From positions 1,800,001 through 1,832,000 of the forward strand of contig NZ_CP064923.1 in assembly GCF_018336915.1 (NCBI RefSeq): a DNA stretch of 32,000 nucleotides. Reading direction: 5' to 3'. Each line of letters opens with the position of its first letter. Position 1 is the stretch's first letter. The position numbers and the translations under genes were made by a program. This DNA is from Acaryochloris marina S15. GTDB taxonomy: Bacteria > Cyanobacteriota > Cyanobacteriia > Thermosynechococcales > Thermosynechococcaceae. The notes under the pieces are model-generated. The model ran no database searches. It was not told the origin of the DNA and was given only the letters and a program-made list of their open reading frames with translations. Positions 25,607-32,000 of the stretch are shown here, in pieces.

Positions 25607-27559
25607 TCACTCATGAAAATCGGCTTCCCATACCCCGATGTAGATCCGATCTTTGTCATTGCGTTGAATGATACCTTTTAGCTCACCCACCCGAAACTCA
25701 TATTCCTGGGCCTGTCTTTGGTAAATCAAAGTCAGTTGTTCTACCACTTTTGCTGGGGGACGGTCTTTGAGCATTCCTTGCAGGGCTAATCGGAGGGGGC
25801 TGAGTCCTACTGTTTGGGCAAAGGCTGCTTCAGTTTGTCGCAGCCGTTGGGTATCCGCATCCAACAAGAAGCCAAAGTCTGTTTGATGGGGTTGGAGGTT
25901 TTTGTACAACAGTCCATAACTATTCGGCCAGTAACCTGGACTTTTCAAGGTTGGGGGACCTAATGCAGCCTGGATATCTGTTTCGGTTACCCCGACACTA
26001 AAAACCGGTACGCTTTTGTTTTCAGCAATCAATACAACGCCACCAGAAGCATTGGGTGGCATTGATTCTATGGGAGCCGGGGTCGGTTTAGGTGAAGGAG
26101 CTGAGGCGGATGGACGCTCCTCGGTCTGGGTTGGTTGTACAGGAGATTGAGGTGAGTTTGAGGGTTGGTTGGCTGGGACTAGAACTTCTGGTGGAGCCAG
26201 CTCTACTTGGGGCTGGCGATGTCTAGAAAACCCCCAAAGAGCACAACTAATTCCCAAAACACCCACCAGAAAGATACCTATGGGTTTCCAATACTTGCTG
26301 ATTGGTCCCACAGAATCAGCTCCTGGGGGTTGTTCAGAACGCAGGGAAACCGCTTCAGAGACTGTTGCTGTTGAGAGAGAATCTTCGGTTTCTAGGGGAT
26401 CTAGGATTTGAGAGATCTGTTGCTCTAGCCAAATCTGATCAAATACCAATCGATAGATTTGGTTGGCCACTTTAACTTGCTGGCCGTCCTGAACGAGCAG
26501 CCCCAAACGCAACAACTCGGTTTCTTCTTCTGCTTGGGTAGATTGGGCTTGTAACTGATGCCAAACGACTTGATAGTAGGTCAATAAATCAATGGGATCA
26601 CAGGTTGAATTCTGAAGAATTTGTGCTTCAAGGCTGCTGAGATGTTTGGTGGCAAAGCCTGATCGCCAATGATGAATAATTTGGTTCTGAACAAGCTGCT
26701 CAACAACAGCGGATTCTTCTCCAGCTCTAACAAAGGAACCGGTGCGGACGAGGTGAGCGACTTTTTGGTTGAGTACAGAGTGATTGTTGGTCCAGGTGAG
26801 AATGGCTTCTAAAAGCCGATAGGGATAGGCTCCAGCTTTACTCAGATTGAGAAATTGGAGTCTGATCTTGTCGTAGGGATGGAGTTTTTTTCGTTCTCTC
26901 TGAATCCACTCAGGGTTAAAAACGGACCGAAACAGGGGATGGGCAATGATGAGGCGATTGTTGCGAAGGGTGACTAGTTCTAGGTTAAGCAGGGCTGTTT
27001 GTTCTAGGTCTCCGGTGAAGGGAATGTCGTACTGGGTGAGAATTTGTTCGTAAATTTGGAGGAGGGAGTAAGGGTTGGCGAGTTCATTCTCTAATAAATA
27101 CTCCCGCAGATGCTGCCAATATTCTGGGGTATTGAAATTGATGGCCTGATCTGTTTCGGATGGTTGGGATTGGGGGATATCCTGGAGATGGGTTAGGAAA
27201 AAGTTAATGGTTTTGAGTTTGATCCAACCATTGGCTACGGCCAAGACGCCAAACCGGAGTTGAGTTAGGTTTTGTTGTTCTAGGAGGTAGTCAATTTGGG
27301 TGTCGGTGAGTAGGTGGGCTTGGCGTAGATATTGCCCGATAGGTAACAGATCCGGATCGTGAAAGAGGGTAGGCCATTGTTCGGCGAAGAAATCAGCCGT
27401 GGGTTCGTGGAGCCAGCCATGTTCGCAGAGGAGATCGCCGAGGCGATGTTGATTGATAGTTTGTTCTTGTAGGGCAAGACTAACTTGAGCGGCAGAGACT
27501 AATCCGGCTTGTTGGAGGACGATTCCAAGAGGGTGAGTGGTAGTAGGTGCTGAAGGCAT
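25607..27559 (-). CDS. Single-pass membrane protein with two tandem MshEN-like modules, winged-helix-like repeats, a Pro-rich linker and an extracytoplasmic C-terminal domain
   Basis: MshEN-like modules at aa 19-70 and 82-134 of the 659-aa ORF. Two copies of an L..LGLV....V.N.IYR.VF...W-type segment follow. The TM helix is IGIFLVGVLGISCALWGF (aa 435-453), followed by a P/S/Q-rich linker. The start is the ATG at 27559 or the TTG at 27586. Confidence 0.75.
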   Translation of the reverse strand: MPSAPTTTHPLGIVLQQAGLVSAAQVSLALQEQTINQHRLGDLLCEHGWLHEPTADFFAEQWPTLFHDPDLLPIGQYLRQAHLLTDTQIDYLLEQQNLTQLRFGVLAVANGWIKLKTINFFLTHLQDIPQSQPSETDQAINFNTPEYWQHLREYLLENELANPYSLLQIYEQILTQYDIPFTGDLEQTALLNLELVTLRNNRLIIAHPLFRSVFNPEWIQRERKKLHPYDKIRLQFLNLSKAGAYPYRLLEAILTWTNNHSVLNQKVAHLVRTGSFVRAGEESAVVEQLVQNQIIHHWRSGFATKHLSSLEAQILQNSTCDPIDLLTYYQVVWHQLQAQSTQAEEETELLRLGLLVQDGQQVKVANQIYRLVFDQIWLEQQISQILDPLETEDSLSTATVSEAVSLRSEQPPGADSVGPISKYWKPIGIFLVGVLGISCALWGFSRHRQPQVELAPPEVLVPANQPSNSPQSPVQPTQTEERPSASAPSPKPTPAPIESMPPNASGGVVLIAENKSVPVFSVGVTETDIQAALGPPTLKSPGYWPNSYGLLYKNLQPHQTDFGFLLDADTQRLRQTEAAFAQTVGLSPLRLALQGMLKDRPPAKVVEQLTLIYQRQAQEYEFRVGELKGIIQRNDKDRIYIGVWEADFHE

Positions 27560-28092
27560 GATGATGATCAGCTTAGGGGCTGTCAATCAGGGCGTTGGAT
27601 ACTATGACTCTAGACTATTGAATAAGTTCTAGCTATAAAATTATTTCGAAAGATTAAATTAGATGGTCGATTGAATAAATTATTGGCAGAAGAGAATCTA
27701 GTGGATTTGCTGGGTGAGGAGGGCTAATCGGCTATCGATTAGCATTTTACTAGTGGAAGTACAAATGTTTGTATCTAATTTCGTTTGCTGTAAGACGGGA
27801 ATAGGGAGTCGATAATTACCCCTAAAGAAATAGCTATTCTAAATTTGATAGTTATTCGTTGGTCAATATTGCGTAATTCTTTCTATTGACTCTGAAGAAA
27901 GAGTAGCACTTCAAATAAGGAATTATAGGGAATTTAAGTTAGGTCAAATTTATGTTGGTAGGCCATAGTATTTTTAGTGCTGAGAGATAAATAGTGCTAT
28001 TGGTACTGCCATACTTATGCCCTTAGCTAACAACCCCAATATCTTAAAGAAATGCTGATTAATTGTATAAAGACTGGAATTGAGGATGAATT

Positions 28093-28356
28093 ATGGCTGA
28101 ACGACCAGTAACTGAATTAACTGATGGCGAGAAGAAAGAACTTTCTGCCCTTCTTGGTAAATTTTTTCAGGATAAAGAGATTTCAACACAAGCCCTTGTT
28201 GTTGATATATCAACCAAAGCAGATGCAGAAGAGAAACTTTCAAGAACAACGAAAACAAGTCTGTATTGTAGATGGGGATGTTGGGCTTGCCAAAATCCAC
28301 CCCCCAATCCTTTAGATCCTTGTTCACCTTGGGGTTTGTGCTGGGACTGTAGATAG
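28093..28356 (+). CDS. 87-aa protein: hydrophilic helical N-terminal region plus a six-Cys, four-Trp C-terminal core; unknown family
   Basis: ATG at 28093 with GAGGA 6 nt upstream. The ORF stays open through a very AT-rich region and a perfect terminator hairpin lies 82 nt after the stop. The core is CRWGCWACQNPPPNPLDPCSPWGLCWDCR. Confidence 0.6.
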   Translation: MAERPVTELTDGEKKELSALLGKFFQDKEISTQALVVDISTKADAEEKLSRTTKTSLYCRWGCWACQNPPPNPLDPCSPWGLCWDCR

Positions 28357-28437
28357 CTAAAGATCTGTAACCAAGATTTACTTAGAACTGTCTACGAAAA
28401 GTTTATATCCGTTTAAGCACTAATAAACTATTATTTT

Positions 28438-28475
28438 GACGTAATGAATACCAATATTCATTACGTCTTTTTATT
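28438..28475 (+). terminator. Rho-independent terminator between the 87-aa gene and the TpsA-like gene
   Basis: Perfect 13-bp stem: GACGTAATGAATA (28438-28450), loop CCAA, TATTCATTACGTC (28455-28467). TTTTTATT follows. Confidence 0.85.
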
Positions 28476-28496
28476 GGGGGAGTCTAATATCCTGGC

Positions 28497-31391
28497 ATGG
28501 TAATCAATATTTATAAGCAATATTTGCAGCTGGGCAGTACTGTACTTATACTTAGCGGGGTTATTTTTACTACTAATATCAAAGAAACTAAGGCTGAAGC
28601 TATACCGGATAGTTCCCTAGGCATAGAAGCTTCGATTGTTATACCTAATCAAAATATAAATGGCCGGCCTGCAAGTTTAGTCCAAGGTGGTGCAGTCCGT
28701 AATGCTGCTACGGTGTTTCATAGTTTTGAAAGATTTAGCATATCTGAAAGCCAAGCCATATATTTTGATAATCCTTCAAGAATTAAGACTATTGTCAGTA
28801 GAGTGACTGGCATTAGCCCATCCGATATCAATGGAACGCTAGGGCTGTGGAACAGTCTAGCGGGAACGTTGGGTAATGCTGATTTGTTTTTCATTAATTC
28901 TCGTGGAATTTCCTTTGGTCCCAAAGCAGCTTTGGACCTCAATGGTTCATTTCTCGCTTCTACTGCAACATCAATAAATTTTGGGGATGACTATCAATTC
29001 AGCACAGTTAACCCTACTGCTCCTCCTTTATTGACAATTAATGTACCGACAGGGTTACAGATTTCTTCCCCTAAATCTACTATTTCCAGTCAAGCTACTT
29101 TTAATATCATTCCCTTGCCAACATTTGGATTAAACGTCATGCCTGGTAATACTTTGGCATTGGTTGGTGGCGACATCCTTATTCAAGGAGGGAGTGTAGG
29201 AGCACCGGAAGGCCGCATCGAACTGGGCGGTGTGCTTAATGGAGAGGTGGGTTTACAACCTGACTTCAGAGGATGGAAGTTGGACTACTCTCAAATCCAA
29301 AACTATAGAGATATCTTGGTAGACAAGCAGTCAATTGTGGCTGCTAATGGAGTTGGAGGTGGTGAGATTCGTTTGCAGGGTAAAAATATTGTTATTGATG
29401 ATAATTCAAGGATTTTTGCGACGGTAAATTTTGGAGCAGAACCAGGGGGCATCATAGAGATTGATGCTTCTGAAATTCTACAGATTAGAAACGGGAGCGG
29501 TATTTTCACCTCTACTTTGGCAGATGGTGATGCAGGAGATATTTTGATCAAGGCTGACAAAGTATTTTTACAAAATGATGCAGCTATTGCCACAGATTCT
29601 GCTTTTATAAATCTTGGTTTTTTTCTAATGCGAGCTAATGGAAATAGTGGCAACATCTATATCACTGCACCTGAATCAGTTGAAATAATCAATAATAGCC
29701 AGATCTCGACAACAACGAATACTCCAGGGAATGCTGGTCTGATCAATATTGAAACAGGTCGTCTGGTTGCTAGAGAATCATCATTATTCCCAGCGATTAA
29801 TTCTGTAGCAGAAATTGGCAGCGAAGGTGATGCAGGTGATGTCAACCTGTTTGCAACTCAGTTTGTTCAAATAAACAATAGCTCCATTTCTACCTCTACT
29901 GCTGGTCTTGGAGATGCTGGAGATTTAAAAATCAATACATCAGAGCTTCTTTTGACAAATGGTGGCAGACTTGAGGCTTCAACAGTTGGTTCAGGAAAGG
30001 GGGGGAATATTGCTGCCTTTGTATCTGATCAGATTAATATTTCGGGCAATACTCCAAATGCAGGCCAACCTAGTGGCATCTTTTCCATAGTTGAGGTAGG
30101 AGCATCTGGGGCAGGCGGTCAACTACTCTTAAGTACAGGCCAAGTAGTCATTGACAATGGTGGCCAAATTTCTACCTCTACTACTGGTTTTGGAGCTGCT
30201 GGCAAGATTGATATTAGGGCATCACAAGGAGTTACCTTAATCGATCCTGGAAGCGGAGTGTTTGCTAACACTACTGATACTGGACAAGGAGGAACTATTT
30301 CATTGTTTACCCCAAATTTTCTGATTGAGAAGGGGGCTGTTGTCAATGCCAGTACTTCTGGGAATGGTCGAGGGGGCAGCATTTTTATCCGGTCCAATCG
30401 TTTTACAGCTCGTCAAGGAGGTCAACTTCTATCTACGGCATCGGGTCAGGGACCAGCAGGGGATATCACCTTACAAGTGCGCGACAACATCACCTTGATT
30501 GGGGCCAATAGTGGATTGTTTGCTAGCACTACACCTGATTCTACTGGGGCTGCTGGCAATATCTTTATCGATCCGATACAAGTGTTGATCACCAATGGTG
30601 CAGCGGTATCAGCGACTAGCTTAGGTATGGGTAAAGGGGGAGATATTCAATTGCGCGCCCGCAATTTAACCCTAGACCAGGGCCAAATTACGGCTGAAGC
30701 AGCAGTGGCCCCAGCGGGGGATATTCAGTTAAATATTGCCAACTTCTTACTATTACGAAATGGCAGTTTGATTTCGACGACTGCGGGTGGGGATGCTACG
30801 GGGGGCAATATTGATATCAATGCTCAACTCGTTACAGCATTTCCATCGGAGAATAGTGATATTACGGCTAATGCCCTCAATGGTCCAGGTGGCAATATTA
30901 CCATTACGACTCAAGGGGTTTTTGGCCTAGAGGTCCGAGACACGCTTACGAATTCCAGTGATATTGCGGCGTTTTCTCAGACTAATCCCCAACTCAACGG
31001 CATTGTCGAAATCATCACTCCTGAGGTGGACCCTAGCGAAAACTTATCTGAACAACCCGATGCCGTTGAAAAGCCGACGGAGATCTCTAGGGGGTGTAAC
31101 GCCCAAACGGCTAGTAGTAGTTTTGTGAGTAAGGGGCGAGGGGGCTTGCCCCACAATCCAGCGACTGCTTTGAGTAGTGAAGCTATCTGGCAGGATCTAC
31201 GTGCGCAAGAAATACAGTCTCCTGTGCAATCCATTAGTCAAATGACACCCAAATCCACTCCACAGGCACCTGTTGCTGCTCCATTCAAATGGGTAGAAGC
31301 CAAAGCTTGGCAAAGGTTACCTAATGGGAAAGTGAAGCTTGTGGGCAATTCAATCAATCAAAACACTTTGCATCCCGCGCCCTCTTGCTAG
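28497..31391 (+). CDS. Filamentous-haemagglutinin N-terminal (TPS) domain exoprotein, TpsA-like, with a right-handed beta-helix repeat body
   Basis: Signal peptide, then a TPS domain (aa 36-165: GGAVRNAATVFHSFERFSI, IVSRVTGISPSDINGTLG, NADLFFINSRGISFGPKA, GSFLASTA). About 650 aa of G/N/S/T-rich repeats follow (GNAGLINI, GDAGDLKI, GKGGNI). The conserved C-terminal segment C-x12-SKGRGGLPHNP resembles that of cyanobacterial homologues. Confidence 0.88.
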   Translation: MVINIYKQYLQLGSTVLILSGVIFTTNIKETKAEAIPDSSLGIEASIVIPNQNINGRPASLVQGGAVRNAATVFHSFERFSISESQAIYFDNPSRIKTIVSRVTGISPSDINGTLGLWNSLAGTLGNADLFFINSRGISFGPKAALDLNGSFLASTATSINFGDDYQFSTVNPTAPPLLTINVPTGLQISSPKSTISSQATFNIIPLPTFGLNVMPGNTLALVGGDILIQGGSVGAPEGRIELGGVLNGEVGLQPDFRGWKLDYSQIQNYRDILVDKQSIVAANGVGGGEIRLQGKNIVIDDNSRIFATVNFGAEPGGIIEIDASEILQIRNGSGIFTSTLADGDAGDILIKADKVFLQNDAAIATDSAFINLGFFLMRANGNSGNIYITAPESVEIINNSQISTTTNTPGNAGLINIETGRLVARESSLFPAINSVAEIGSEGDAGDVNLFATQFVQINNSSISTSTAGLGDAGDLKINTSELLLTNGGRLEASTVGSGKGGNIAAFVSDQINISGNTPNAGQPSGIFSIVEVGASGAGGQLLLSTGQVVIDNGGQISTSTTGFGAAGKIDIRASQGVTLIDPGSGVFANTTDTGQGGTISLFTPNFLIEKGAVVNASTSGNGRGGSIFIRSNRFTARQGGQLLSTASGQGPAGDITLQVRDNITLIGANSGLFASTTPDSTGAAGNIFIDPIQVLITNGAAVSATSLGMGKGGDIQLRARNLTLDQGQITAEAAVAPAGDIQLNIANFLLLRNGSLISTTAGGDATGGNIDINAQLVTAFPSENSDITANALNGPGGNITITTQGVFGLEVRDTLTNSSDIAAFSQTNPQLNGIVEIITPEVDPSENLSEQPDAVEKPTEISRGCNAQTASSSFVSKGRGGLPHNPATALSSEAIWQDLRAQEIQSPVQSISQMTPKSTPQAPVAAPFKWVEAKAWQRLPNGKVKLVGNSINQNTLHPAPSC

Positions 31392-31714: not shown

Positions 31715-32000
31715 ATGGAATCCCCTAAATACCAATCAAATGAAGGAATAAAGATTGAAGGGGAAATCACATTGCTGATGTATCAGACGACATCAGACAA
31801 GAAAAAAGTTCAGCTCAGCTTATTCAAGCTGACAACAGATGATGATGAAATATTTACTTTCTGCAATCACTATAAAGAGTCTTCCAGTTCAAAAAGCATA
31901 AATATATTAGTGAGTCTGGAAAGCCTGCAATTTTTTGATGAATATAGTCAGAATCATTTTAGTCTCTTGAATAGAGTTGTAATCTCAGTTCGAGAGCAAG
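31715..32000 (+). CDS. 5-prime part of an ORF running off the window (unknown function)
   Basis: An ATG at 31715 is followed by 95 stop-free codons in AT-rich DNA (MESPKYQSNEGIKIEGEITLLMYQ...). It is absent from the ORF track because it has no stop in the window. I see no signal peptide and no clear SD. Confidence 0.4.
   Translation, partial: MESPKYQSNEGIKIEGEITLLMYQTTSDKKKVQLSLFKLTTDDDEIFTFCNHYKESSSSKSINILVSLESLQFFDEYSQNHFSLLNRVVISVREQ

Follow-up and report, generated by a model that had tools for sequence, protein, structure and literature searches.

A cysteine- and tryptophan-rich small protein encoded upstream of TpsA-like exoproteins in Acaryochloris: a narrowly distributed family with a predicted hairpin core

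A conserved small gene precedes a TpsA-like exoprotein gene

The window analysed here, i.e. a stretch of 32,000 nucleotides (nt) of Acaryochloris marina S15 (contig NZ_CP064923.1, positions 1,800,001 to 1,832,000; coordinates below are those within the window), carries at 28093-28356 on the + strand a gene for an 87-amino-acid (aa) protein, whose C-terminal 29 residues (28267-28353) contain six cysteines (Cys) and four tryptophans (Trp). The gene, which starts with the ATG at 28093 and ends with the TAG at 28356, lies directly upstream of a gene for a TpsA-like exoprotein. It had been singled out in an earlier examination made from the letters of the window and its open reading frames (ORFs), hereafter the sequence-only reading, and the positions of the ORF and of the core, as well as the number of Cys and Trp residues, were all correctly described there. 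By exact-sequence look-up the product corresponds to WP_212665329.1, annotated as 'hypothetical protein' of Acaryochloris marina.

The start codon is preceded, at a distance of 6 nt, by a Shine-Dalgarno-like GAGGA (28082-28086, + strand) that can be read directly in the sequence, and the AGGA core of this ribosome-binding site is kept at the same position in other strains. A TGA at 28087-28089 is in frame with the small ORF and upstream of the ATG; it blocks any N-terminal extension, and the absence of a signal peptide from the 87-aa product is therefore real. The N-terminal arm (residues 1-58, 28093-28266, + strand) is highly charged at its start, and the maximum Kyte-Doolittle value of the whole product over 15 residues is 0.49.

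For a comparison of reading frames, the orthologous DNA of the small gene was recovered from other strains, yielding seven diverged versions. The annotated frame was the only one free of stop codons across all seven. In this frame, the ratio of non-synonymous to synonymous substitution rates (dN/dS, Nei-Gojobori) was 0.05-0.23 at synonymous distances (dS) of 0.3-2.7, which are near or beyond synonymous saturation, compared with 1.0-4.7 in the two shifted frames. Both parts of the protein are constrained, with dN/dS values of 0.13-0.26 for the leader and 0.00-0.22 for the core. An antisense ORF of 78 aa at 28091-28327 was considered as the gene instead and was rejected, as its conservation is absent across strains. 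The 87-aa ORF is thus a genuine small gene, as the sequence-only reading had proposed.

The GC content at third codon positions (GC3) is low in the small gene (0.26) and in the adjacent exoprotein gene (0.34) compared with nearby housekeeping genes of the window (0.47-0.54), which fits a shared origin of the two genes as an island. By its codon usage, which seems foreign or relaxed, the cluster as a whole resembles an island. In the same comparison, i.e. of 28093-31391 with positions 1-24000 of the window, the intergenic regions flanking both genes showed 31-34 % GC.

The Cys/Trp core is a predicted two-stranded hairpin

The core, CRWGCWAC-QNPPPNPLDP-CSPWGLCWDCR (28267-28353, + strand), is preceded by a conserved TKTSL[YF] junction. 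For the 87-aa protein, AlphaFold2 predicted an amphipathic helix at residues 11-27, a disordered linker at 29-57 and two strands at 61-64 (WGCW) and 83-86 (CWDC), which are joined in a hairpin by the Pro-rich loop, with a confidence (pLDDT) of 70-74 in the core. The two-part product without a signal peptide that had been read from the sequence, i.e. a helical and disordered arm followed by a Cys/Trp core, is thereby borne out. In a longer relative of 169 aa (P0009, see below), the equivalent strands were placed at 145-148 and 165-168 with a pLDDT of 88-94, while the rest of that protein remained below 50. The core is thus confidently predicted to be an autonomous, previously undescribed mini-fold, which matched nothing in Pfam, NCBIfam or the PDB.

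In all nine members of the family identified here, R60, G62, C63, C66, P71, P76, C77, C83, W84 and R87 are invariant; that is, four of the six Cys (C63, C66, C77 and C83) and one of the four Trp are kept throughout. The duplicated W-G-x-C-W-x-C that had been noted in the window protein is indeed present there, but it is exact only in its closest relatives: the second 'WG' varies (WN, YS, WY), and family-wide the two halves have just C-[WY]-x-C in common. When the core was shuffled 200,000 times, a pair of CWxC motifs came up in 0.56 % of cases and a pair of WG(x)CWxC motifs never, so the repeat of the window protein is non-random for its composition. The halves also resemble each other at the DNA level, as claimed before; this likeness is, however, forced by the codons of Trp, Gly and Cys and provides no independent evidence of a duplication.

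In two members, P0003 and P0004, C59 is replaced by Phe or Tyr, C86 by Tyr and W61 by Ala, the two Cys changing together. This clade is under purifying selection (core dN/dS of 0.10 at a dS of 0.60), from which it follows that the function needs only four Cys and that C59 and C86 behave as a unit.

Three further ideas on the core were discarded. Cyclotide-like head-to-tail cyclisation was rejected because no residue beyond R87 could serve as a leaving group, attachment of a c-type haem because a CxxCH motif is absent, and a double-glycine leader for want of a G-[GAS] site.

A tiny family with two architectures

Relatives of the 87-aa protein were sought by a word-indexed profile search in a collection of 5.8 billion proteins and an exhaustive profile search in 1.84 billion cluster representatives. 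The first word-indexed search gave three relatives, the exhaustive search added P0004, P0005 and P0007, and a second profile search of the 5.8 billion proteins added P0008 (A. marina MBIC10699/MBIC11017) and P0009. Another candidate, P0006 (612 aa, eight 'matches'), was rejected as a repetitive junk ORF. Together, both searches returned only nine true sequence clusters, eight from Acaryochloris and one from a metagenome, all with the four Cys and W84 invariant. At the DNA level, a degenerate pattern for the core matched A. marina MBIC11017 alone among 185,579 GTDB species genomes, and its 26 matches in JGI metagenomes were all GC-rich, off-frame chance matches. The family is therefore tiny and restricted to Acaryochloris.

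The earlier statement that no family could be recognised also stands. At E-values up to 10, Pfam gave no match for the window protein, P0005, P0007 or P0009 and only a sub-threshold noise match of 12.7 bits for P0008 (PCDH15_12th), while NCBIfam gave only a 13-bit noise match of the 87-aa protein to a phage tail protein model. A sequence search of the PDB yielded only noise at E 5.5, and Foldseek found nothing in the PDB, a 29-residue motif being near its detection limit. PADLOC recognised no defence system in the small protein, its relatives or the cluster.

The members fall into two architectures. The short form (seven clusters, 84-94 aa) has no hydrophobic segment and is encoded immediately upstream of a TPS-domain gene in all of its loci. 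The long form (P0007 and P0009, 166-169 aa) begins with MAFNK and a Lys/Arg-rich charged n-region, followed by a hydrophobic stretch and an AXA site (AFA|D or ALA|E). The Kyte-Doolittle values of this stretch, 2.18 in P0007 and 1.79 in P0009, stand against 0.49 in the short form, and the N-terminus of the long form has the features of a Sec-type signal peptide with N-in/C-out polarity. After the signal, about 105 residues were called disordered by AlphaFold2, before the protein closes with the core (...CWDCR-stop).

Residues 3-87 of the window protein are colinear with residues 89-169 of P0009 by BLASTP (39 % identity, weak for the N-terminal arm), which gives the short form the appearance of a long form that has been truncated N-terminally. 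The direction of this change, from long to short, is suggested by the more distant P0009 being long. The GyrB encoded on the contig of P0007 clusters at at least 90 % identity with the GyrB of A. marina, so that this long form, too, comes from an Acaryochloris lineage.

While the short forms keep the same neighbours, a comparison of the P0007 and P0009 neighbourhoods revealed no conserved partner gene: the P0007 gene is located downstream of a cyanoexosortase A gene and that of an associated protein, and the P0009 gene adjoins a divergent pair of genes for an ATP-binding cassette (ABC) protein and a membrane fusion protein (MFP). In locus L011 (6202-10501), from another Acaryochloris lineage, the long-form gene directly follows an operon encoding a VIT/VWA protein, cyanoexosortase A and the associated protein. 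The VIT/VWA protein resembles the 'marine proteobacterial sortase target' (512.9 bits, as against a curated cut-off of 551.65). The long form itself has no PEP-CTERM tail, and its linkage to the exosortase operon may be incidental.

Transcription signals around the small gene

A terminator scan placed a conserved RNA hairpin with a T-rich tail at 28438-28475 (+ strand), between the small gene and the exoprotein gene. The hairpin proper (28438-28467) has a 13-bp stem followed by TTTTTATT, and across seven strains compensatory double changes were found at 7 of 16 pairs. In the alignment, 88 % of cells were paired, compared with 28-45 % when the 3' arm was slid, and the covariation score was reached by none of 500 shuffles. 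The T-tract is good in the window and degenerate in other strains, e.g. TTGCTTTT and TTGATAGT. This element is likely to be a leaky terminator or attenuator, or it may be a stabiliser of the transcript.

From the end of the hairpin to the conserved start codon of the exoprotein gene there are only 30 nt, in which no promoter-like site was found, and a single operon is therefore the simplest reading. As judged from this layout, the small gene and the exoprotein gene are likely co-transcribed, with attenuation at the hairpin. The sequence-only reading had described an independent gene with a dedicated terminator; while the hairpin and its T-rich tail are confirmed, the independence is doubtful, since the exoprotein gene has no room for a promoter of its own.

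Upstream of the small gene, a 60-nt non-coding block at 27859-27919 (+ strand; TTGGTCAATATTGCGTAATTCTTTCTATTGACTCTGAAGAAAGAGTAGCAC...), i.e. 174-234 nt ahead of the ATG, is conserved in all strains. In locus L010, around 140 nt are lost between this block and the ATG, with the block itself kept. We take it as the likely promoter/operator of the operon. The block contains a GTA-N8-TAT element that is loosely NtcA-type-like. No Rfam family matched the 5' region (including the block) or the spacer, and the idea of a riboswitch or other RNA family is thus unsupported. The divergent intergenic region holds a second terminator-like hairpin, at 27723-27743 (+ strand; GCTAATCGGCTATCGATTAGC plus ATTTT), for which there is no + strand gene upstream. 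Its stretch is not conserved with A. marina MBIC11017, and it is probably a chance match.

The surrounding gene cluster

The cluster continues past the right edge of the window, and its end was reached through a TPS orthologue, with gene and Pfam tables covering up to 10 kb on either side in the eight sufficiently covered short-form loci. The order of genes is: a divergent gene for a membrane protein with MshEN-type motifs, the small gene, the first TPS exoprotein gene (TPS1), a gene for an M8 peptidase, a gene for a protein of around 165 aa (range around 150-215 aa), a second TPS exoprotein gene (TPS2), a TPR-CHAT gene and a convergent PDZ/S41 peptidase gene, which marks the end of the cluster.

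TPS1 (28497-31391, + strand) encodes the 964-aa TpsA-like exoprotein, which matches the Pfam TPS domain (E=4.5e-48) and the NCBIfam model adhes_NPXG and consists of a signal peptide, the TPS domain, beta-helix repeats, a conserved GC...GRGGLP motif and a terminal Cys. Of the M8 peptidase, which is leishmanolysin-like, only the start is within the window (31715-32000, + strand); it matches the M8 genes of loci L014 and L003, and Peptidase_M8 was assigned by Pfam on a full-length orthologue. No second copy of the small gene was detected upstream of TPS2, either by motif scan or by tblastn.

The divergent gene (25607-27586, - strand) encodes a 659-aa membrane protein (650-659 aa among strains) with two motifs of the MshEN type, which binds cyclic di-GMP (c-di-GMP), matching NCBIfam NF053729 in two stretches (E=1.2e-18). 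The protein further shows one transmembrane helix, a Pro-rich linker, a periplasmic C-terminal domain without family match and a weak AAA_35-like region, and its gene adjoins the small gene in all short-form loci with sufficient coverage other than L010, from which it is absent. The protein might serve the adjacent adhesin and protease cluster as an inside-out c-di-GMP receptor of the LapD kind.

Among the same eight loci, no gene for a radical-SAM, YcaO, LanM, P450 or MNIO enzyme or for an ABC/PCAT exporter was present in the cluster. The lack of a maturase or exporter already noted for the window thus extends to the cluster end. Likewise, from the MshEN gene up to the convergent gene for the S41 peptidase, no TpsB transporter (POTRA/ShlB) is encoded. 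The tabulation of neighbours proposed earlier has therefore given TPS and CHAT proteins, but no radical-SAM enzyme, P450, PCAT/ABC exporter or TpsB.

Possible functions of the 87-aa protein

The reading that we favour, at a probability of roughly 40 %, is that of an extracytoplasmic, disulfide-stapled hairpin mini-protein that is a partner of the TPS operon and needs no dedicated enzymes. The core also ends proteins bearing a Sec signal (the 166-169-aa long forms), and on these grounds the domain would have evolved for work outside the cytoplasm. The core residues would fold as a two-stranded beta-hairpin in which WGCW pairs with CWDC across the Pro-rich loop and which is held together by its Cys, while the N-terminal 58 residues would provide an amphipathic helix and a flexible linker. 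The Cys would be oxidised to two or three disulfides, with C63, C66, C77 and C83 being obligatory and C59 and C86 forming a dispensable pair that aromatic residues may replace. The 87-aa form would have arisen from a long form by loss of its N-terminal part and have become the leading cistron of an exoprotein operon of the TpsA type. A good ribosome-binding site, together with a leaky hairpin allowing only partial transcription into the TPS gene, would then yield the small protein in larger amounts than the exoprotein. As a partner of, or accessory to, a surface cluster of TPS exoproteins, proteases and c-di-GMP signalling, without modifying enzymes dedicated to it, the small protein would reach the envelope by a route encoded outside the cluster. 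Here we infer four things, i.e. the disulfide state of the Cys, the export of the short form, its co-transcription with the TPS gene and its partnership with the TPS protein.

Several points weigh against this reading. A signal peptide is missing from the short form and an exporter from the cluster; if the short form is cytoplasmic, its Cys could not form disulfides and would have to be metal-bound or reduced. C59 and C86 were lost as a pair only once in evolution, and the register predicted by AlphaFold2 (61-64 against 83-86) does not set C59 opposite C86. A zinc-knuckle-like motif could just as well explain the high AlphaFold2 confidence, which was obtained with nine sequences. That the small gene and the TPS gene are co-transcribed is argued from spacing only, and a promoter inside the small ORF is possible. 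Finally, the association of the small protein with the TPS protein is known as genomic linkage, with a functional partnership being putative. The tension comes down to two options, namely export of the short form by a non-local route or stapling of the domain by metal in both compartments. A precedent for a metal binder in two compartments is given by the Cys-rich copper storage proteins, of which Csp1 is exported and Csp3 is cytosolic.

The closest rival, which we regard as somewhat less likely than the favoured reading, is a cytoplasmic metal-stapled mini-protein, in which zinc at the CxxC...CxxC or at a site of the four invariant Cys, or else a Cu(I)-thiolate cluster, would hold the core, with the helical arm contacting a partner, as a regulator or chaperone of the TPS/protease operon. 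The highly charged N-terminus without a signal peptide in the short form and the missing exporter are in line with a cytoplasmic location, the spacing C63xxC66...C83xxC86 suits paired zinc knuckles, a Cys4 site could be made by the four invariant Cys alone, and AlphaFold2 is confident on the core despite a very shallow alignment. Moreover, small cytosolic Cys-pair proteins, e.g. NblD, have been characterised in cyanobacteria (PMC7865187). On the other hand, in P0007 and P0009 the domain follows a Sec-type signal peptide, and extracytoplasmic Cys4-zinc sites are rare. The proposed second knuckle would have C86 as a ligand, but two of the nine members, which form a clade under selection, carry Tyr at this position, whereas C63xxC66 is invariant. 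Furthermore, no zinc-ribbon model of Pfam or NCBIfam matched at E-values up to 10, there was no PDB sequence or fold match, and the knuckles are without the usual CPxCG-type residues. A zinc pair formed by CWAC and CWDC had been one of two proposals of the sequence-only reading; it is possible for the short form, but is weakened by the loss of C59/C86 and by the extracytoplasmic long forms.

The other proposal, a precursor of a ribosomally synthesized and post-translationally modified peptide (RiPP), has fared worse and is now improbable. Here, the 58-residue leader would direct Cys/Trp cross-linking (ranthipeptide-like thioethers or Trp cross-links) by enzymes encoded elsewhere, and would be removed, perhaps by the M8 or CHAT protease, prior to export. 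The leader-plus-core layout with the core at the extreme C-terminus, the six Cys within 29 residues, the conserved TKTSL[YF] junction before the core and the two proteases of the cluster all agree with such a precursor. However, none of the maturation enzymes or exporters named above is encoded in the cluster, no NCBIfam model for RiPP precursors was matched, and a double-glycine cleavage motif is absent. The leader was found only in full-length family members by the exhaustive profile search and matched no Pfam or NCBIfam leader model. In addition, the core is no more variable than the leader, as judged from dN/dS, is predicted to be a folded mini-domain, and also occurs in Sec-exported proteins behind an unrelated N-terminal region of around 85-90 residues.

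A similarly small chance is given to a variant in which a protease of the cluster, either M8 or the caspase-like CHAT protein, would cut the core off its leader, and the core would be exported by a non-Sec route, as a new cystine- or Trp-Cys-cross-linked peptide working with the TPS exoproteins, i.e. as a signal, a protease inhibitor or a fibre cap. If this were true, it would represent a class of peptide products without a classical maturase.

Lastly, a functionless remnant, i.e. a truncated long-form copy that is still open, or an upstream ORF of which the translation and not the product matters, would agree with the apparent N-terminal truncation and the atypical codon usage (GC3 of 0.26), but is contradicted by the purifying selection on both leader and core, by a frame intact in seven lineages and by a stop codon 82 nt ahead of the hairpin, too far for ribosome-coupled attenuation, and can practically be set aside.

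Comparison with known systems and significance

The 87-aa protein is most like small Cys-stapled hairpins or zinc-knuckle mini-proteins, but is a member of none of the systems with which it was compared. Among disulfide-stapled beta-hairpin peptides, tachyplesin, protegrin and theta-defensin were used for comparison. Like these, the protein has a core of around 20-30 residues with two antiparallel strands (here predicted), an alternation of aromatic residues and Cys, a C-terminal ...C-R, and two obligatory Cys pairs plus an optional one. In contrast, its core has a net charge of 0 and is thus not a cationic membrane-active one, the protein is bacterial, the Pro-rich loop between C66 and C77 is 10 residues long, and the Cys spacings fit no regular ladder.

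With zinc-ribbon and CPxCG-type proteins such as NblD, it shares the small size, the absence of a signal peptide and two CxxC motifs around 16 residues apart on short beta-strands. NblD, a cyanobacterial Cys-pair protein of 66 aa with four Cys and its first pair (C9 and C12) N-terminal, shows that such small proteins can be protein-binding factors in cyanobacteria, and it is absent from most Acaryochloris (PMC7865187). Unlike NblD and zinc ribbons, to which it shows no sequence or profile similarity, the 87-aa protein has six Cys rather than four, one knuckle Cys being dispensable, is rich in Trp, lacks the CPxCG residues and has homologues with Sec signal peptides. NblD is thus an analogue in kind only.

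Precursors of the SCIFF/ranthipeptide type, which have six Cys in around 45 residues and are matured by a radical-SAM enzyme, resemble the small protein in the short product, the leader-like N-terminus and the six-Cys C-terminus. They differ in that the 87-aa protein matched no precursor model in NCBIfam and has no radical-SAM/SPASM maturase adjacent or in the cluster, and, while SCIFF peptides were described from Clostridia, the small-protein family is confined to one cyanobacterial genus.

At the level of gene organisation, the locus resembles a two-partner secretion (TpsA/TpsB) locus in having a TPS exoprotein gene adjacent to the small gene, but no TpsB is encoded in the cluster. In operons of fimbrial major subunits, a hairpin after the first gene lowers downstream expression. 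Here, too, a conserved stem-loop separates a small, well-translated first cistron from a large gene for a surface or secreted protein, although the small protein is no pilin or fimbrial subunit and read-through is predicted from the sequence.

What has been defined is a new, unannotated Cys/Trp hairpin domain of 29 residues in a single genus, and a tractable evolutionary case in which a Sec-exported protein has apparently lost its N-terminal part and been recruited to the first position of a TPS-type operon beside a c-di-GMP receptor. For this taxonomically narrow orphan family, the content of the cluster gives no evidence of exotic chemistry, and for genome mining it follows as a caution that a leader-plus-Cys-rich-core layout alone is no sign of a RiPP. 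An interaction of the short form with the TPS exoproteins, should it exist, would make it an unusual small accessory factor of this secretion family and offer a way into the TPS-CHAT clusters of cyanobacteria, which are poorly understood. A search of the literature for such clusters in cyanobacteria found nothing, and in a paper on polymorphic toxins Acaryochloris is named only for an unrelated toxin.

Further observations on the cluster proteins

A TPR-CHAT locus of Nostoc (L050) has no TPS gene. Immediately upstream of its TPR-CHAT gene (L050 1-9882) lies an unrelated cluster of the class II lanthipeptide type, comprising a LanM-like enzyme, two NHLP-type precursors, an ABC exporter with a C39 peptidase and an MFP.

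All ten TPS exoproteins examined (from the window and from L001, L002, L006, L010, L014 and L046) end in a Cys (...PAPSC* or ...PIATC*). Around 95-100 residues before it they carry K/R-G-C...SSF..GRGGLP, followed by WQDLR and EAKxW...G+V.L. The combination of this motif with the terminal Cys suggests a C-terminal module that may be closed by a disulfide.

The M8 peptidase and the following protein of around 150-215 aa have an N-terminal domain of around 60 residues in common. Both are without signal peptides and are very different between otherwise syntenic strains (L001-L006, L014 and L046), a variability that resembles that of polymorphic effector cassettes. Several of these proteins end in short Cys- or Pro-rich tails, i.e. 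DDCWPCLD, ACCHNCSEK, CRCKKCRIKL and PPPPPPPPPPPF.

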